Part shown: positions 12,907 through 21,630 of the stretch, piece by piece
Layout: each line of letters begins with the position of its first letter
How positions within the stretch are numbered: position 1 is the first letter of the stretch
Origin: Candidatus Hermodarchaeota archaeon
Lineage (GTDB): Archaea; Asgardarchaeota; Hermodarchaeia; Hermodarchaeales; Hermodarchaeaceae
Direction of reading: 5' to 3'
DNA length: 26,143 nucleotides
Assembly (NCBI GenBank): GCA_016840065.1
Contig: JAEOTB010000048.1
Span: 1 to 26,143 of the forward strand
Program-made: the position numbers and the translations under genes
Notes under the pieces: generated by a model
What the model was told of the DNA's origin: nothing
Seen by the model: only the letters and a program-made list of their open reading frames with translations
Database searches by the model: none

Positions 12907-14484
12907 ATGTCTCGGTCAAAAGGCGGTACAAAGATTGTATTAACCGCTTCTGAAATCGAGATGTCTAACTTTCGTAACGACCCTTTCGCTGCCTTTGCTG
13001 GCTCATTTCTCCCCGCCCCTGGGATTGTAAAACGGTTTTTCTACCCAGAAACCAAAGGCTTTGGAGACAAAAGAGCGAAGATAGCACCTTACGGTCTTCG
13101 CAAAATAGAAGCACTCCTCCTTGAAAACGGATTCACACCCTCAGAGGTTGCGGTTGTCCATCCCAAGAAGCTCAAATATTTCATTGGACCTGAAACCCGG
13201 GTTGTGGGCATCTCAAGCATGGATCCGCTTGGTATTGCCTATGTCTCCCTGACCTACTCGAACCTCTTCACCTCTGGAGGTGAACCAAACAATCGCACTG
13301 AATTTCGGAACCTACTACTGAACACGTCAATCACCAAAGCACGACAAAAGGGGCAAATCAAGGTGATTGTTGGAGGTGCAGGCGCATGGCAACTTGCACC
13401 AAAAACAATCCGTGAGTTCCTCGGTATTGACTGTGTCCTAACTGGAGAGGGAGAAGAAGTGGTAGTGGATGTCTTTCGTCGAGCCATAAAGGGAGAACCA
13501 ATTCCACCAGTTGTACAGGGCAATTCCCCGAGAAACCCTGAGGATATCCCCTTAATCAAAGGTGAGGCAGTTCATGGTTGCGTAGAGATAACGAGGGGCT
13601 GCGGGCGGGGCTGCCAGTTCTGCTCACCAACCCAGCGTCAACGAATGTCAATTCCACTTGACCGAATCCTCAAAGAAGTCAAAGTAAATGTTGATTCAGG
13701 AGCAGAAATGATCATTCTAGCAACTGAGGACATCTTCCTTTATGGTCTAAAATCCCGCCGCTTCCTACCTAACCGGGAACGCATCGTAAAACTCGTCAAA
13801 GCCATCGCCGAGGTTCCTGGAGTCAAGTATGTCCAACCCGCCCACATGGCACTATCACCTGTCGTCGCAGACCCCAAGTGTGTCGAGGAAATGGCTGAGA
13901 TCCTCATTACAAAATCAAGTTATCGTCGCCGAGGAAAACCCTACATCACTGCTGAAGCAGGTGTAGAAACAGGTAGTCCAAGGCTGTTCAAAGAAAAAAT
14001 GGCAGGAAAAGCCCTTCCCTTCAAACCCAAAGAATGGCCCGATATAGTGGTGCAGTCCTTCGGCATCCTCAATGACAACAACTGGAACCCGCTAACCACC
14101 TGGATTGTGGGACTTCCAGGCGAACGGGAAGAAGATGTCCTTGCCTCACTTGAACTCCTTGACCGCCTCAAAGGTGCAATCGCCTTCTATGTGCCCTTAC
14201 TCTTCATACCCTTGCGCCCATCGATTCTCAGCGAAGGAAGCCGTCCAGAGATAGAATCCCTAACTGATTTGCAATGGGAGTTCTTCACAAGGTCCTGGGA
14301 ATACAATCTAGATATCTGGCGGCGACCCCTTTCGCCAACTCCACGAAACCTGATATCCAGTCTTCTTCTTCCAATTCTAGGAGGGCTGTTCTATTTTGGG
14401 TCAGCAGCACGAAAACCAACAGGGCCCATGATGAAACGCTTAATCTTTCGTTCCATGAGAAGAGCATTTCTAGAACCCAGCTAG
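12907..14484 (+). CDS. B12-binding-domain radical SAM protein of the archaeal Grs/Gms-like (GDGT-modifying) family
   Basis: CxxxCxxC motif (EITRGCGRGCQFC), APYGLRKIEA.L, MDPLG, VIVGGAGAWQL and GVETGS; GGAGG RBS. The radical SAM call is firm; the subfamily comes from recalled motifs. Confidence 0.85.
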   Translation: MSRSKGGTKIVLTASEIEMSNFRNDPFAAFAGSFLPAPGIVKRFFYPETKGFGDKRAKIAPYGLRKIEALLLENGFTPSEVAVVHPKKLKYFIGPETRVVGISSMDPLGIAYVSLTYSNLFTSGGEPNNRTEFRNLLLNTSITKARQKGQIKVIVGGAGAWQLAPKTIREFLGIDCVLTGEGEEVVVDVFRRAIKGEPIPPVVQGNSPRNPEDIPLIKGEAVHGCVEITRGCGRGCQFCSPTQRQRMSIPLDRILKEVKVNVDSGAEMIILATEDIFLYGLKSRRFLPNRERIVKLVKAIAEVPGVKYVQPAHMALSPVVADPKCVEEMAEILITKSSYRRRGKPYITAEAGVETGSPRLFKEKMAGKALPFKPKEWPDIVVQSFGILNDNNWNPLTTWIVGLPGEREEDVLASLELLDRLKGAIAFYVPLLFIPLRPSILSEGSRPEIESLTDLQWEFFTRSWEYNLDIWRRPLSPTPRNLISSLLLPILGGLFYFGSAARKPTGPMMKRLIFRSMRRAFLEPS

Positions 14485-16401: not shown

Positions 16402-17226
16402 CTAGCCACCAGCCCCCTCGTACCGGTTCCGCCCCCGCCTCCAAACAATCCTGGAAAACCCCCAGAGAATAACTAGCCAAACGGTACTGAGAAGAAAGAT
16501 CGGAATAAGCTGGGATGCTTCATAGAATCCTTGGAGCACAACAACGGGGATGAAATAACAGTACTGAAAGGGAAGCAGGCTCAGAATAGTCTGGGCGACT
16601 GGAGGAAAGAAGGTCAATGGAATAAGACCACCACCAGCGATTAGAGTCGCCAGTGCAACGAGCTGTCGGAGCCACCATTGGCGTCCCACCCAGAAGGTAG
16701 CCAAAGCCAAAGTGAAGTACATAAGAAAAGTGATGGAATAGGATGCAAGCATCAAGGGAAGAAACAAGCCCACATTCACAAGGAGTGGAATCGGCAGGCC
16801 CAGTAGAAAGACGCCACCAACGTATGTGACCGCTCCGAAGCTGAGGAAAAGGAGGGCACGTGGAAGGTCAACAAAGAATGTGTGTCCCATGTAATCGACG
16901 GGCTTGCCAAGATAGGTCACAAGGGGTCCATCGTCGATATCCCGCTCGATTTGACGGCTCATGGCATGTTGAGGGAGCACCTTCTGCAACATGACACTAA
17001 CAAAGAGATAACTGATCAATTGAAACAGCGTGAAGCCACCAATAACCACGCTACTACTGAGGAGCCACGACTGCCAATACACAATCGAATACATGAAGAA
17101 CAAGGCGACCAGCTCTGCAGGAAAGTAGACAAAGTGCGTCAAGAAATTCACTGTATACTCACGAATATTTCGAAAGGAAATGCTGGTGACCGCCCAGTAG
17201 GTCCTGAATCGTGCACGCTGCCGCAT
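16402..17226 (-). CDS. ABC-2 family transporter permease
   Basis: About six hydrophobic segments, YL.KP.DY, G.LIPL.FFP...LPF and a C-terminal RYEGAGG. Likely ATG at 17226, 5 nt after the previous stop. Confidence 0.88.
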   Translation of the reverse strand: MRQRARFRTYWAVTSISFRNIREYTVNFLTHFVYFPAELVALFFMYSIVYWQSWLLSSSVVIGGFTLFQLISYLFVSVMLQKVLPQHAMSRQIERDIDDGPLVTYLGKPVDYMGHTFFVDLPRALLFLSFGAVTYVGGVFLLGLPIPLLVNVGLFLPLMLASYSITFLMYFTLALATFWVGRQWWLRQLVALATLIAGGGLIPLTFFPPVAQTILSLLPFQYCYFIPVVVLQGFYEASQLIPIFLLSTVWLVILWGFSRIVWRRGRNRYEGAGG

Positions 17227-17231
17227 CTCAA

Positions 17232-18062
17232 CTAGCCTCCGACAGGATTGTATCTCCGTAATCCTCGACTGAAAAGAAGACGAAACATCAACAGCCAACC
17301 TAGGAATAAGCCAGCTGCAATTCCCAAGTACAGTAACCCTGCCGATATGGGCAACTGCCCTAGTAAAAGCATCACCGGGACCGTAGCTATGTAGATAACT
17401 GGCAGGATAAATGTCAGAACTTGCTGCACAGTGTGGGGCATAACATCGATTGGCATACGAGCGAACTTCACTTCGATAGCATCCGAAATCTCCAACAGCG
17501 CGTGATTACGCCCAATCCAGAAGGAAAGAGTGGCAAGTCCAGCCCAGAGCGCATACAAGGCTCCTTGCCCAGTGACTAGAGCTAGAAACCCTAGGATCAA
17601 ACCTGGCAGACTAATTGTGAGCCCAAAGGAAATACAGGAAAGCCCAACCATAGCCCCACCAATAGCCACCTGAACAAGCCCCCCGAACCAGAAACTTTCC
17701 GCTAATAACAAGAAAAACGGGCTGACAGGACGGATGAGAAATTTCTCTAGCCCTTCTTCCGTAACATAATGCGGAAGCTCCCACGTACCCATATAAATGA
17801 AGGCGCCTAGACCCCAGGCGATCTCTGTCATACCGATTAATACGGTTAATTCGCCGCGTCCCCACACTGCTATCCCTGCACCTGTGAGAACTGGAACTTG
17901 GGTCGTGATGACATTCCAGAAGACAACATAAGCTGCGAGGTTAACGGCTGAACTGAAGATGGCACCCCAGAGCATAGCCTTGTTCTCTGCGGTCTTGAGG
18001 ACTGAAAGTTTGAAATAGGTTGGTAGCAGCCGCACCTGGCGTAGTAGGTCACGTAGTCCCAT
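17232..18062 (-). CDS. ABC-2 family transporter permease
   Basis: Hydrophobic segments, GLEKFLIRPVSP, FARMP.DV.P and GLRRYNPVGG. ATG at 18062 lies one base after the ATPase stop, with GGAGGTG upstream. Confidence 0.88.
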   Translation of the reverse strand: MGLRDLLRQVRLLPTYFKLSVLKTAENKAMLWGAIFSSAVNLAAYVVFWNVITTQVPVLTGAGIAVWGRGELTVLIGMTEIAWGLGAFIYMGTWELPHYVTEEGLEKFLIRPVSPFFLLLAESFWFGGLVQVAIGGAMVGLSCISFGLTISLPGLILGFLALVTGQGALYALWAGLATLSFWIGRNHALLEISDAIEVKFARMPIDVMPHTVQQVLTFILPVIYIATVPVMLLLGQLPISAGLLYLGIAAGLFLGWLLMFRLLFSRGLRRYNPVGG

Positions 18063-18063
18063 T

Positions 18064-19119
18064 TTAGGTGGACACCTCCTCTGATTGGCTGGATGATTGG
18101 AATTCGTCCTCACCAAAGATTCCACGAATTATATCTTCGAGGTTGGGTTCTTTGACTTCAATATCTTCGACGGTGACAAGGTCGAGGATTAGTTTCAGGA
18201 TTGTTGGTACTGCGATTTGGTCTTGGTTGATCGTTAGTTCAAACTGACCATTGCTCACTACTAGACCTGTGACTCCAGAGATTCCGCGGAGCTGCCGTCG
18301 CCAAGCTCGGGTTTTGGGTTTTCGGTAGATGACTCGGATTTGTCTTTCGTTGTGCCAGCGACGTTTCAATTGGTGTTTTGAGCCGTCAAATTTGATGTGA
18401 CCTTTAGAGATGAGGATGATGCGGTCGGTTAGCTCTTCGACGTCTCGCATGCTGTGGCTGCAGAGTAGGACCGTCACGTTCTCGTCGCGGTTGATGCGCC
18501 TGACGAAATCTCGGATTCGCTTCTTTGCGACCACATCAAGACCAACTGTCGGCTCATCAAGGAAGATAATCTCTGGTTTGTGGAGGAGAGCGGCAATAAT
18601 TTCGCAGCGCATCCGTTCGCCCAACGAGAGCCGCCGAGGAGCCGTTGCTAGGTAGTTGCGTATTTCTAGGATTTCAGAGAATTCTTCGAGCCTGCTTTCG
18701 AAATCCGACTTGGGGACATTGTACATCTTCTGATACAATTTCAAGCTTTCAATCACTGGAACATGACGCCAGAGGAGCGTACGTTGACCAAAGACCACGC
18801 CATAACGCATTGCACATTCGGTTCGGTTGCGATATGGATCCATTCCGAAGAGGCGTGCTTCACCAGAGGTAGGGCAGAGGATTCCGCTGAGTAGCTTAAC
18901 GGTTGTTGACTTGCCCGCGCCGTTGGGTCCCAGTAGGGCCACGCACTCGCCTGAGCGGATACTGAAGCTTACTCCGTCCACTGCTCTTATAGTTCGTTTC
19001 TCCCGTTTGAGGAATCCGTAGAGGCGTCGGGCTCTTCCCTTGCGTGGCTTCACCAGGGGTTTGGTGAAGGTTCGGACGATGTTGTCCACCTCTGCGATTG
19101 GTTCGTTTTGCAGTGGCAA
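18064..19119 (-). CDS. ABC transporter ATP-binding protein (ABC-2 exporter type)
   Basis: Walker A GPNGAGKS, VVFGQR, signature LSLGERMR and Walker B IIFLDEPT. TTG at 19119 (GGAGA upstream) is preferred because ATG 19158 abuts the TATA-like TTTTTATAG. Confidence 0.92.
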   Translation of the reverse strand: MPLQNEPIAEVDNIVRTFTKPLVKPRKGRARRLYGFLKREKRTIRAVDGVSFSIRSGECVALLGPNGAGKSTTVKLLSGILCPTSGEARLFGMDPYRNRTECAMRYGVVFGQRTLLWRHVPVIESLKLYQKMYNVPKSDFESRLEEFSEILEIRNYLATAPRRLSLGERMRCEIIAALLHKPEIIFLDEPTVGLDVVAKKRIRDFVRRINRDENVTVLLCSHSMRDVEELTDRIILISKGHIKFDGSKHQLKRRWHNERQIRVIYRKPKTRAWRRQLRGISGVTGLVVSNGQFELTINQDQIAVPTILKLILDLVTVEDIEVKEPNLEDIIRGIFGEDEFQSSSQSEEVST

Positions 19120-19250
19120 GATTATAGATCTCCGGTAATTGGGTGGGAACACCAACATAACTATAAAAATATTACTAAAAGAATAACAGAATCGTTAACC
19201 TATTGTGGGCTACCCCGATGAAAGAAGGCTAGCACAACACACAACATTCA

Positions 19251-19274
19251 TTATCATTTCACTCACAATGATAA
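19251..19274. promoter_or_regulatory. Perfect inverted repeat TTATCATT-N8-AATGATAA, candidate operator
   Basis: 8-bp perfect arms about 80 nt upstream of the TATA-like element (19161-19169) of the ABC operon. Confidence 0.4.
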
Positions 19275-19421
19275 CCTCTGATCCCATACAATCACTAACC
19301 CCAAAGTCCACAGGTCAGCGGAACAGGCTAATCTAATCCAACTTAAAAATAATCATCAAGATAGCCTCAGCAAGAAATCACTGGATACCTCCTCAAAAAC
19401 CTTATGGCTAGAACTCGATAG

Positions 19422-19671
19422 TAAGAAAAGAGGTGGTAGGCGAGTTGCGTCTAACCCTGATGCCTTTCAACTCGCATCAAGGAATAGCTGGGACTAAAAC
19501 AGTGTAGGAGAGCAGCTAGTGAAAAATCCGGAATCAAAGTGTGGGTGAAAGTGTCTCTTCGACCAATGATTCCGGTAAACCTGCTGTAGCGTAGCCTCTT
19601 TCTGACATTCAACAACTCGCCCACCTACGGGCTTTGATACGCACCATTCACCTTACAATGAAGCAGTGCGC
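19422..19671 (-). ncRNA. Candidate structured non-coding RNA of unknown family (~250 nt)
   Basis: TATA-like TTTTTAT at 19697-19691. Helices: 19639-19671 hairpin with a GUAA loop; 19625-19613 with 19447-19435; 19575-19567 with 19536-19528; 19482-19474 with 19463-19455. Mismatches resolve as GU only on the minus strand. U-rich 3' end. Confidence 0.55.
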
Positions 19672-19777
19672 TTGGTTGTTCTTGTGGTGGATAAAAAGAG
19701 TATTATTTCGGCACATCAACTGGGGCCTAAATCGAAGCCTTTATCCTCTATTCGTTAGAGGCAACAGAGCTATCCGC

Positions 19778-21475
19778 TTAGGGGTTCATTTCATAAGCGT
19801 CTTTCAGGGCATGTACTGTCTTCCAGACCCTTTGATACCGTTTCTCGTCAACAGATGGTTTCCTAATCATCTGCTGGCAGAACTCCATCTGCTTAGGAGT
19901 ACTACTTGGTTTGTTGTGGAGCTGTAAGGCGAAGGTTGAGTAGTCTCGTACCATGAAATCAAAAATCTGGTCAACGGTTGCATCATCTAACTTGTAGATT
20001 TTAGCATTCTCCAGAATGAGTTGCCCGTAGACCACCAAGGCGAACAAGTCACTCACGGTCATGGCAAAATCGGTGTCCTCGCGCTGATCCTTATCTGGAG
20101 TCGCCTGACCCAACAAATCCTTGAAAGCTGCAACCTGCTCCTTGAAGATTCCAACATTTGGCAAATCGTAGCTATCAAAGGCAGCAGAATAATCGTGGAA
20201 CTGAACCTTTCCCAGCCCACGCGTCGGCCCCTGCTGGAAGAGGAAATCATCATTCTGAGCTGCATCCATCATGGGAACTTCAGGGAATTTTCCAGGATTG
20301 AAGAAGTAGTTCAATATGAACTTGGCAACCAGAGCAAGATTCACGTGAACCGTACCCTCCAGCTTGGGCAGAGCCCGAATATCCCGGGCTGCCATCTCAA
20401 AATACATGTCCTTCTCAAAACCCTTAGCAGCAATCACATCCCAGAGAAGGTTGATAACCTCCTCGCCCTGCAGTGTCACCTTCATCTTGACCAAAGTATT
20501 GTACAGGAGATATCGTCGATCCTCAAGGGATGCAACACGCATGTAATCAGCCGCCCGCAAAGCGAACAACTTCATGGCCACTAATCTTGTGTAAGCGTCA
20601 ACGAACATACGCTGTACATGGGAGAAATCAGTCACGTACATACCGTAGAGGCGCCGGTTGGCAGCATGGTTAATGGCTTCATAAAAGGCATGCGTGCATA
20701 TGCCGATGGAAGCCCAACCCAAGTTAAATTTACCAACATTGACCGTATTAAGACAGCAATCCCAAGCCTCCCGACCCTGAGCTAGAACATCAGCCTCAGA
20801 GACCGGGTAATCTTTCAACGCATACTCGCCCACATAATTCTGACTGTTACAAACATTCTGAACACAATCGTAACCCCTGTTACGATAGTCGGCAACAAAA
20901 AACACATAGTCGCCGCTATCAGCCATCTTCCCAAAAGTCGACACCATCGGAGCCACATTCGCGTTGCCGATATAATACTTCGAGCCGTTGGCAACATAGG
21001 CTCCATCACCCTTTGGTGTGAGTGTCATTTCAGTCGAGTAGATGTCAGCACCGTGAGCACGCTCTGATAAACCAAGGGCGAATACGTTCCCCTCCTTGAG
21101 CAGCTTTGCAGCCTTGCGTTTAGCTTCCTCGTTCTTACTCATCCAGATGGGCCCCAGACCAAGGATTGAAACCTGCCAAGTATACCAATAAGCTAGTCCG
21201 TAGAAGCCGAGGATTTCGTTGAATCCGCAGTTTCTCCAGGTGTCCCAGCGGCAGTCCTTGTTTGTGGAATATTCTGTTGGTGTTAGGAGGGTTGCGAAGA
21301 GTTCCTCTCTCTTTTGGAATTCGATGAATTCTGTGTAGAAGCTTCGGGCGTGGTCGTCTTCCTTGAGTTTTCGTTTCCCTCGTTTCTCGAACCACTCGAT
21401 GGTTTTGAGCATGATTTCTTTGGAGCGTTCATCGGGGTATGGGCGTGTGTATTTGTTGGGGTTTAGGAGAATCAT
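19778..21475 (-). CDS. Acyl-CoA dehydrogenase family protein
   Basis: FALGLSERAHGAD, NGSKYYIGN, NTVNVGKFNLG and RDIRALPKLEGT. Likely ATG at 21475 (MILLNP). Confidence 0.92.
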   Translation of the reverse strand: MILLNPNKYTRPYPDERSKEIMLKTIEWFEKRGKRKLKEDDHARSFYTEFIEFQKREELFATLLTPTEYSTNKDCRWDTWRNCGFNEILGFYGLAYWYTWQVSILGLGPIWMSKNEEAKRKAAKLLKEGNVFALGLSERAHGADIYSTEMTLTPKGDGAYVANGSKYYIGNANVAPMVSTFGKMADSGDYVFFVADYRNRGYDCVQNVCNSQNYVGEYALKDYPVSEADVLAQGREAWDCCLNTVNVGKFNLGWASIGICTHAFYEAINHAANRRLYGMYVTDFSHVQRMFVDAYTRLVAMKLFALRAADYMRVASLEDRRYLLYNTLVKMKVTLQGEEVINLLWDVIAAKGFEKDMYFEMAARDIRALPKLEGTVHVNLALVAKFILNYFFNPGKFPEVPMMDAAQNDDFLFQQGPTRGLGKVQFHDYSAAFDSYDLPNVGIFKEQVAAFKDLLGQATPDKDQREDTDFAMTVSDLFALVVYGQLILENAKIYKLDDATVDQIFDFMVRDYSTFALQLHNKPSSTPKQMEFCQQMIRKPSVDEKRYQRVWKTVHALKDAYEMNP

Positions 21476-21630
21476 CTTGCCACATCCAGTCAACTTCCTC
21501 AGGTTCTACTCAGAGATAAGTCTAGGGGTCATTAACGACCTGAGTAAAAAGGGGTGGGTGAATTCTTAGGTGATTTGTCTTTCTGGTTTTTCCCGAATAA
21601 GATTGGTTTTGTTGTGGGTTTGTAGTGATA

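Follow-up and report, generated by a model that had tools for sequence, protein, structure and literature searches.

Does the roughly 620-nt gap between an acyl-CoA dehydrogenase gene and an ABC-2 transporter operon in an Asgard archaeon hold a structured non-coding RNA, and if so, where? An initial annotation of this region, made from the sequence alone, proposed that positions 19422–19697 on the minus strand, which lie within the gap, form either a small structured RNA with its own promoter or a cis-regulatory leader. The DNA is contig C23 of G000, a metagenome-assembled genome of 2.59 Mb that is 84% complete. The window is the whole stretch of DNA that was analysed, 26,143 nt long, and all coordinates given without a locus prefix refer to it.

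The locus and the genomes compared

The dehydrogenase gene occupies positions 19778–21493 on the minus strand, with its stop codon at 19780–19778. The operon is encoded on the same strand and consists of an ATPase gene (18064–19158 as the longest frame), a gene for an ABC2_membrane_6 protein (17232–18125) and a third frame without a Pfam match (16402–17298). The transporter is of the DrrA-like/ABC2_membrane_6 type.

The stretch at 19422–19697 occurs in only three genomes, all belonging to one genus of the Promethearchaeota (Asgard), and our analysis of its origin covers these three: G000, which contains the window, G002 and G003. A search of 60 related genomes gave a DNA match to the stretch in G002 only, at 94% identity. 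In G003, a third species of the genus, the contig carrying the ABC gene begins 862 nt upstream of that gene, and this upstream DNA aligns to positions 19582–19159 of the window and, in collinear order, to a short block around the 5′ arm of a long predicted helix described below.

In the sister genus, the dehydrogenase gene does not adjoin the ABC operon. Nothing like the stretch was found there downstream of the dehydrogenase gene, and the region upstream of the ABC gene likewise gave no counterpart, with resemblance confined to the last ~220 nt. Scanning metagenomes with the ABC ATPase returned only contigs like those of the sister genus and no further genome carrying the stretch.

Close homologs of the dehydrogenase are labelled Promethearchaeota, i.e. 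Asgard, and homologs at 77–90% identity are present. Many proteins with the labels Chloroflexota, Phycisphaerae or Proteobacteria also share 72–77% identity with it and are thereby nearly as close as its sister-genus counterparts (68–74%). The likeness could reflect inter-domain transfer or mis-binned contigs.

Sequence motifs and predicted fold

Every motif in the initial annotation is present on the minus strand where it was reported. Reading 5′ to 3′, the stretch opens with the T5 run TTTTTAT (19697–19691), located 81 nt downstream of the dehydrogenase stop codon. This run had been described as a promoter element; from its sequence, it may be a weak TATA-like box and could equally be an oligo-T tract that terminates the dehydrogenase transcript. 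Next comes hairpin 1 (19639–19671), whose loop is GUAA. A 13-bp outer helix is then predicted between a 5′ arm at 19613–19625 (GGUGGGCGAGUUG) and a 3′ arm at 19435–19447 (CAACUCGCCUACC), which are 165 nt apart and form 12 Watson–Crick pairs and one G-U pair. Enclosed by this helix are a short AGCAG/CUGCU pairing, a 9-bp helix whose arms at 19575–19567 and 19536–19528 are perfectly complementary, and a last hairpin of 9 bp at 19455–19482. The stretch ends in a T-rich tract at 19423–19432 (CUCUUUUCUU).

RNAfold gives the minus strand a minimum free energy (MFE) of −82.2 kcal/mol, with a z-score of −2.37 (3 of 200 shuffles did as well), and the plus strand a z-score of −1.73. Both the MFE and the centroid structures contain the 13-bp and 9-bp helices as well as the first and last hairpins; the AGCAG/CUGCU helix is missing from the MFE. 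When the 3′-arm region was paired with its own upstream sequence, the duplex reached −32.1 kcal/mol (z = −4.7), a value equalled by none of 200 shuffles.

A folding z-score had been suggested as a check on the proposed RNA, and the minus-strand value is the lower of the two, but it is ordinary for this DNA. Among 94 non-overlapping minus-strand segments of 276 nt, z was −2.37 or lower in three and −2 or lower in six, and all of these low-scoring segments are coding DNA. Two other 13-nt inverted repeats with 92% complementarity lie within 300 nt of their partners, at 13484/13733 and 26015/26034; the former falls inside a coding frame. For a scan of 26 kb, the helix set exceeds chance only weakly.

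Family searches agreed with the initial annotation that known RNA classes are absent. Covariance models from Rfam 15 gave no match across the window at the gathering threshold and, over 19100–19850 at E ≤ 10, gave three chance-level matches, none of which falls within 19422–19697. The stretch thus has no Rfam family, whether SRP RNA, RNase P RNA, a riboswitch, a C/D or H/ACA sRNA or any other, and ARAGORN found no tRNA. Thirteen related loci were also without Rfam matches at both gathering and permissive thresholds. We considered a bulge-helix-bulge motif, which has two 3-nt bulges flanking a 4-bp helix, and rejected it, as the long helix consists of 13–14 uninterrupted pairs in the MFE structures of both G000 and G003.

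Homology to a surface-protein gene

The G003 DNA homologous to the stretch is an open reading frame. It is cut by the contig end, running off the contig start (L023:2–559), encodes 185 aa or more and ends 333 nt ahead of the ATG of the ABC gene (L023:893). The encoded protein has three repeats of ~55 aa with the pattern GYTxSFGxGxxDxWLxRxD, followed by a PPPP linker and the tail MIPGFSWLAVLPALVLALTVGLLRRKRRTA. It exceeds the cut-off of the NCBIfam Loki-CTERM model (NF033507), scoring 23 bits where 19.9 are required, and its repeats match the delta-60 repeat model below threshold only (27 bits, cut-off 76.5).

An nhmmer comparison aligned positions 116–273 of the candidate (window 19582–19425) to L023:408–585 with E = 3.3e-7, and the 5′-arm block gave a collinear blastn match to L023:170–194 (E = 0.003). 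The stop codon TAG at 19453–19451 aligns with the G003 stop codon TAA, and the T-rich tract aligns with the terminator-like T-run of G003 (CTTCTTTTTT). Both the stretch and the G003 gene are also syntenic, lying directly upstream of the ABC gene and of a conserved element between the two, which we call element B. We regard it as demonstrated that the stretch is homologous to the 3′ end of a coding sequence and that its position is syntenic.

The stretch is thus collinear, from the last repeat through the T-rich terminator, with the G003 gene, which encodes an NF033507 surface protein with delta-60/SBBP-like beta-propeller repeats. Compared with this open G003 gene, however, the window and G002 share a deletion of ~225 nt, a deletion of 13 nt and a 1-nt indel that shifts the frame. 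A decayed coding remnant comprising the last repeat, the Pro-rich linker and the Loki-CTERM anchor can be traced by nhmmer and the three-genome alignment at 19451–19582 on the minus strand. It reads ..THTLIPDFSLAALL.. where G003 has ..PPPPTLMIPGFSWLAVL..RRKRRTA: PGF has become PDF, and the membrane helix and the basic tail are gone. A residual frame of 57 aa contains ..LIPDFSLAALLHCFSPSYS.., for which the G003 counterpart is ..MIPGFSWLAVLPALVLALTV.., and it has no match to NF033507 at E ≤ 1 and is not a Loki-CTERM member. The upstream third of the stretch (19583–19697) aligns to G003 at the 5′-arm block alone, so its origin is less certain.

Protein-level searches did not reach significance. 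A tblastn search with the G003 frame against the intergenic region gave short collinear matches only, with non-significant E-values of 0.15–0.5, and a blastx search with the intergenic region against all G000 open reading frames gave no match to any paralog. No intact ortholog of the G003 gene was found in the family. The G000 genome contains dozens of matches to the G003 protein, spread over a dozen or more large open frames, and ~20 places in it encode an IPGF-TM-RRRR tail.

The G003 gene and its surroundings have some features of their own. In the contig containing it, the RRKRR tail codons CGG CGG AAA CGC CGC (L023:536–549, plus strand) form a 5-bp hairpin (CGGCG-GAAA-CGCCG) with a GAAA loop just ahead of the stop codon, which differs from the 9-bp hairpin of the window. 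In the G003 assembly, contig C88 (L007) ends 16 nt beyond the stop codon of the dehydrogenase gene, and a second break, at contig C136 (L023), falls inside the Loki-CTERM repeat gene. A multi-copy repeat family probably fragments assemblies of this type, and Loki-CTERM repeat genes may be under-counted in them.

Conservation of the helices

Over the 276 nt, G002 differs from G000 by 16 substitutions and 2 one-base deletions, or about 6%. Two of the changes are favourable to pairing: C19670 to U keeps its pair, and G19448 to A extends the outer helix. Others are damaging. The 9-bp helix loses a pair through U19532 to C (A-U to A-C), and the last hairpin loses its closing pair through G19463 to A (C-G to C-A). 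Changes at 19583 and 19584 weaken AGCAG/CUGCU, and a deletion takes G19664 out of hairpin 1. Since G002 substitutions break or weaken three of the inner helices, these helices are unprotected. The G002 changes carry no strand signal, because each strand, plus and minus, would gain G-U pairs from two of them.

Neither hairpin 1 nor the TTTTTAT box has an equivalent in the aligned G003 sequence, and the hairpin is confined to G000 and G002.

The outer helix behaves differently. Its arms in G003 are GGUAGGCGAGUAG and CUGCUCGUCUACC, the 5′ arm (L023:170–182) corresponding to GRRVVEC codons and the 3′ arm lying at L023:563–575. All 13 pairs are retained in G003 though 5 of the 26 bases differ, through one two-sided change (U-A to A-U) and three one-sided changes that keep the pairing, and two G-U pairs of the G003 helix would be A-C on the plus strand. 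The simulated chance of such retention is 0.5–1.2% for five random substitutions and 2.6–4% at 19% divergence. The helix is present in the MFE structure of the G003 region, where it closes a domain of 380 nt. The energy of the G003 duplex is ordinary, however (z = −0.97, with 38 of 200 shuffles doing as well), and the orthology of the 5′ arm among repeat units is plausible, not certain. General pairing between the 3′ UTR and the coding sequence of Loki-CTERM genes was considered and rejected, as such pairing was absent in 14 intact paralogs (median z = +0.2).

Across the three genomes, then, the picture for a conserved non-coding RNA is mixed: the outer helix shows compensation, three inner helices are disrupted in G002, and the first hairpin is absent from G003. 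Of the structured RNA proposed in the initial annotation, the outer helix alone is borne out, being kept in the diverged G003 with G-U pairs on the minus strand, and the stretch is homologous to the coding 3′ end and 3′ UTR of a Loki-CTERM gene in that genome.

Divergence along the locus

Between G000 and G002, 34 of 196 fourfold-degenerate sites differ in the dehydrogenase gene over 19784–21208 (17%). The stretch itself diverges by ~6%, about three times below these adjacent sites; the young block contains no other intergenic region that could calibrate this comparison. A purely neutral relic should not diverge threefold more slowly.

The surrounding DNA is much more diverged. In the ABC gene, 52% of fourfold sites differ between G000 and G002, rising to 57% beyond codon 55. 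At the other end, about 54% differ in the first 95 codons of the dehydrogenase gene; divergence is high upstream of about 21200, and the spacer upstream of the gene is unalignable with G002. Because divergence is high in the ABC gene, low over 19784–21208 and high again upstream, the locus appears to be a recombination mosaic, a pattern that suggests recent homologous exchange of a block of ~2.2 kb, from about 19000 to about 21200.

Origin of the stretch

We conclude, with a probability of roughly 65%, that positions 19422–19697 are the degenerate 3′ end of a gene, now lost, for a cell-surface protein and not a non-coding RNA. The stretch is read as a gene relic because of the ~225-nt deletion, the 13-nt deletion and the frameshift relative to the open frame of G003, and we infer that it has no RNA function of its own. 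The lost gene, encoding a secreted protein of beta-propeller repeats with a Loki-CTERM (PGF-type) sorting signal as its anchor, would once have stood between the dehydrogenase gene and the ABC-2 operon. It is still open in the sister species G003, and most of it would have been deleted in the lineage of the window and G002, leaving ~200 nt of frameshifted coding remnant and the old 3′ UTR with its T-rich terminator.

The helices would then be by-products of coding ancestry. In the outer helix, the 5′ arm (former codons G-G-R-V-V, corresponding to the GRRVVEC codons of the G003 homolog) would pair with the old 3′ UTR, in which the 3′ arm begins 3 nt past the former stop codon. In the 9-bp helix, one arm (19567–19575) would derive from D-R-D-L-W codons of the repeat motif and the other (19528–19536) from (L/M)-I-P-G/D codons in the PGF sorting motif, so that former DRDLW codons pair with former I-P-G-F codons. 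The last hairpin would occupy what was once the sorting signal's basic tail, and the T-rich tract would be the former terminator of the lost gene. If so, the result is a caution: in a genome rich in repeat proteins, a decayed gene tail can mimic a multi-helix non-coding RNA, complete with a GNRA loop, G-U pairs valid on one strand only and a T-rich terminus, and it is the comparison with a relative that retains the gene that resolves the choice between relic and RNA.

Because the outer helix keeps 13 of 13 pairs in G003 and the relic diverges slowly, we also allow a minor share of probability, well below that of a functionless relic, to an RNA-level role for the relic or at least for its outer helix. 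In that case, the genus would have co-opted the relic as a structured RNA of its own, in which the 13-bp helix closes a domain. Its transcription would be driven by the TTTTTAT box, or the RNA would be a precursor of element B or extend it on the 5′ side. Compensatory change in the outer helix, with G-U pairs valid on the minus strand only, speaks for such an RNA, as do the low divergence relative to fourfold sites, the strong pairing of the 3′ arm with upstream sequence (z = −4.7) and the lower folding z-score of the minus strand. Element B's own TATA box is moreover degenerate in the genus (AAGGTTTTTGAGG, against AAATATTTTTAATC in the sister genus). These points have to be set against inner helices broken in G002, a hairpin 1 missing from G003, a G003 5′ arm that is coding sequence in an unremarkable duplex, a z-score ordinary for the window and a sample of three genomes. 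Paired changes in inverted repeats can also arise by template-switch mutation, without selection. A bolder and somewhat less probable version of the same idea is that a dying surface-protein gene was recycled into a genus-specific RNA, its final ~200 nt and 3′ UTR being kept by compensatory change in a closing 13-bp helix that pre-existed in the mRNA; this RNA might be the 5′ part or precursor of element B, whose promoter decayed in the genus. If true, it would offer a traceable birth of a non-coding RNA from coding sequence in Asgard archaea. Small RNAs born of 3′ UTRs or decayed genes are a concept known mainly from bacteria. The relic RNA, if real, would likewise consist of a former 3′ coding end and 3′ UTR, closed by a conserved helix, with compensation in one helix only.

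The remaining readings carry less weight than a decayed tail or an RNA derived from it. Constraint on the DNA or on a neighbouring transcript, in place of a folded RNA, seems improbable to us: the stretch could contain sites that regulate element B and the ABC operon, or it could provide the dehydrogenase gene with its 3′ UTR and a zone of termination, and the lowered divergence, the T5 run after the dehydrogenase stop codon and the position adjoining element B, whose promoter looks weak in the genus, would all suit this, but the low divergence is spread across all 276 nt and not in short boxes, no repeated operator-like motif was found, and the sister genus does without this DNA. That the 57-aa frame (19451–19624, minus strand) still encodes a small protein is far less credible. 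It is open in G000 and has no indel in G002, yet the nine G002 differences within it fall two, three and four at codon positions 1, 2 and 3, without third-position bias, and the frame is not under coding selection. It also matches no family, polar residues (HCFSPSYS) break the former membrane helix, and the GTG start has no evident ribosome-binding site or promoter. Least credible of all, and close to negligible, is a MITE or other mobile repeat. The 13-nt inverted repeats do look terminal, but the stretch is single-copy, its arms are unique in the genome and map to coding sequence and 3′ UTR in G003, and its position is syntenic in all three genomes, all of which contradicts this reading.

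A candidate structured RNA ahead of the ABC operon

The undescribed structured RNA of this spacer would instead be element B, predicted as five helices over ~200 nt at 19177–19376 on the minus strand, and not the stretch at 19422–19697. The ~220 nt ahead of the ABC gene are 98–100% identical between G000 and G002 and recognizable across the family. In an alignment of 22 copies, a TATA-like box, degenerate in the window's genus as described above, is followed ~25 nt on by an invariant GAGGC, then by ~200 nt of conserved sequence and by a second, near-perfect box (AATATTTTTATA). This second box is the TATA box of the ABC operon, AATATTTTTATAG at 19160–19172 on the minus strand in the window, and is conserved family-wide. 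The ABC gene probably starts at the TTG at 19119–19117, which is preceded by GGAG and lies 41–53 nt past the TATA box; the N-terminus read from it matches that of the sister genus (MP..EPIA..). The longest ATPase frame starts at an ATG (19158) only 2 nt past the TATA box, a codon that is TTG in G002.

As for the initial annotation's alternative, a cis-regulatory leader, the stretch at 19422–19697 cannot be the leader of the ABC gene: a distinct conserved RNA-like element and a perfect TATA box separate it from the ABC start. It resembles leaders and riboswitches of transporter operons in being long, structured-looking and upstream of the operon. Unlike them, it is upstream of the operon's TATA box, belongs to no Rfam family and is not conserved with the operon, which lacks it in the sister genus.

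A covariance model with five helices aligned 27 copies of element B. In this alignment, which was fitted to the model and so favours pairing, 87.6% of cells are paired, against 36–48% when the partners are slid by 1–3 columns, and the covariation score is 0.258 against 0.04–0.12 for slid partners. Two-sided changes occur in nine pairs and 31 cells, where shuffles give 11.6 ± 2.8 and none of 500 reaches the observed value. With 88 G-U cells and 11 A-C cells, the sense is fixed as that of the ABC strand, and indels of 4 and 3 nt within one helix speak against a coding frame. RNAalifold predicted no pairs on the raw MAFFT alignment because the strands of the helices are misaligned there.

With a second model, element B turned up at one locus each in 17 of the 19 genomes that make up the class sample; the family, order and class searches all cover this same set. 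The 132 further genomes searched in the Asgard phylum gave no copy. Rfam has no family for it in the window or at 13 related loci, and a literature search found no comparable structured regulatory RNA. An archaeal C/D box sRNA at 19322–19367 (minus strand), within the element, was considered and rejected: the snoR77Y model scores 16.9 bits against a gathering threshold of 52, and, where RUGAUGA and CUGA boxes are expected, the D box of G003 is CUGG and the C box of the sister genus is GGUGGA or UAUGGA.

Element B is like the motifs found upstream of transporter genes by comparative genomics (PMC2864571) in its covarying helices, conserved loops and fixed position, and in having no coding potential. 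It differs from them in being confined to one Asgard class, in standing between two TATA boxes and in being sometimes tandemly duplicated. It could be a separate small RNA that terminates at the T-run overlapping the ABC promoter, or a leader whose read-through feeds the ABC operon. It offers a concrete target, being RNA-like, covarying and strand-specific, present across the lineage and placed just ahead of an operon for an ABC-2 exporter.

In three genomes, a tandem second copy of element B lies ~700 nt upstream of the first. Diverged second copies occur in some sister-genus genomes, at L030:3285–3493 (minus strand), L025:588–796 (plus strand) and L032:3272–3479 (minus strand), and also in L056 and L057. 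The second copy has its own downstream TATA box, followed by ~430 nt without a credible open reading frame, and a GNAT-type acetyltransferase gene lies further upstream.
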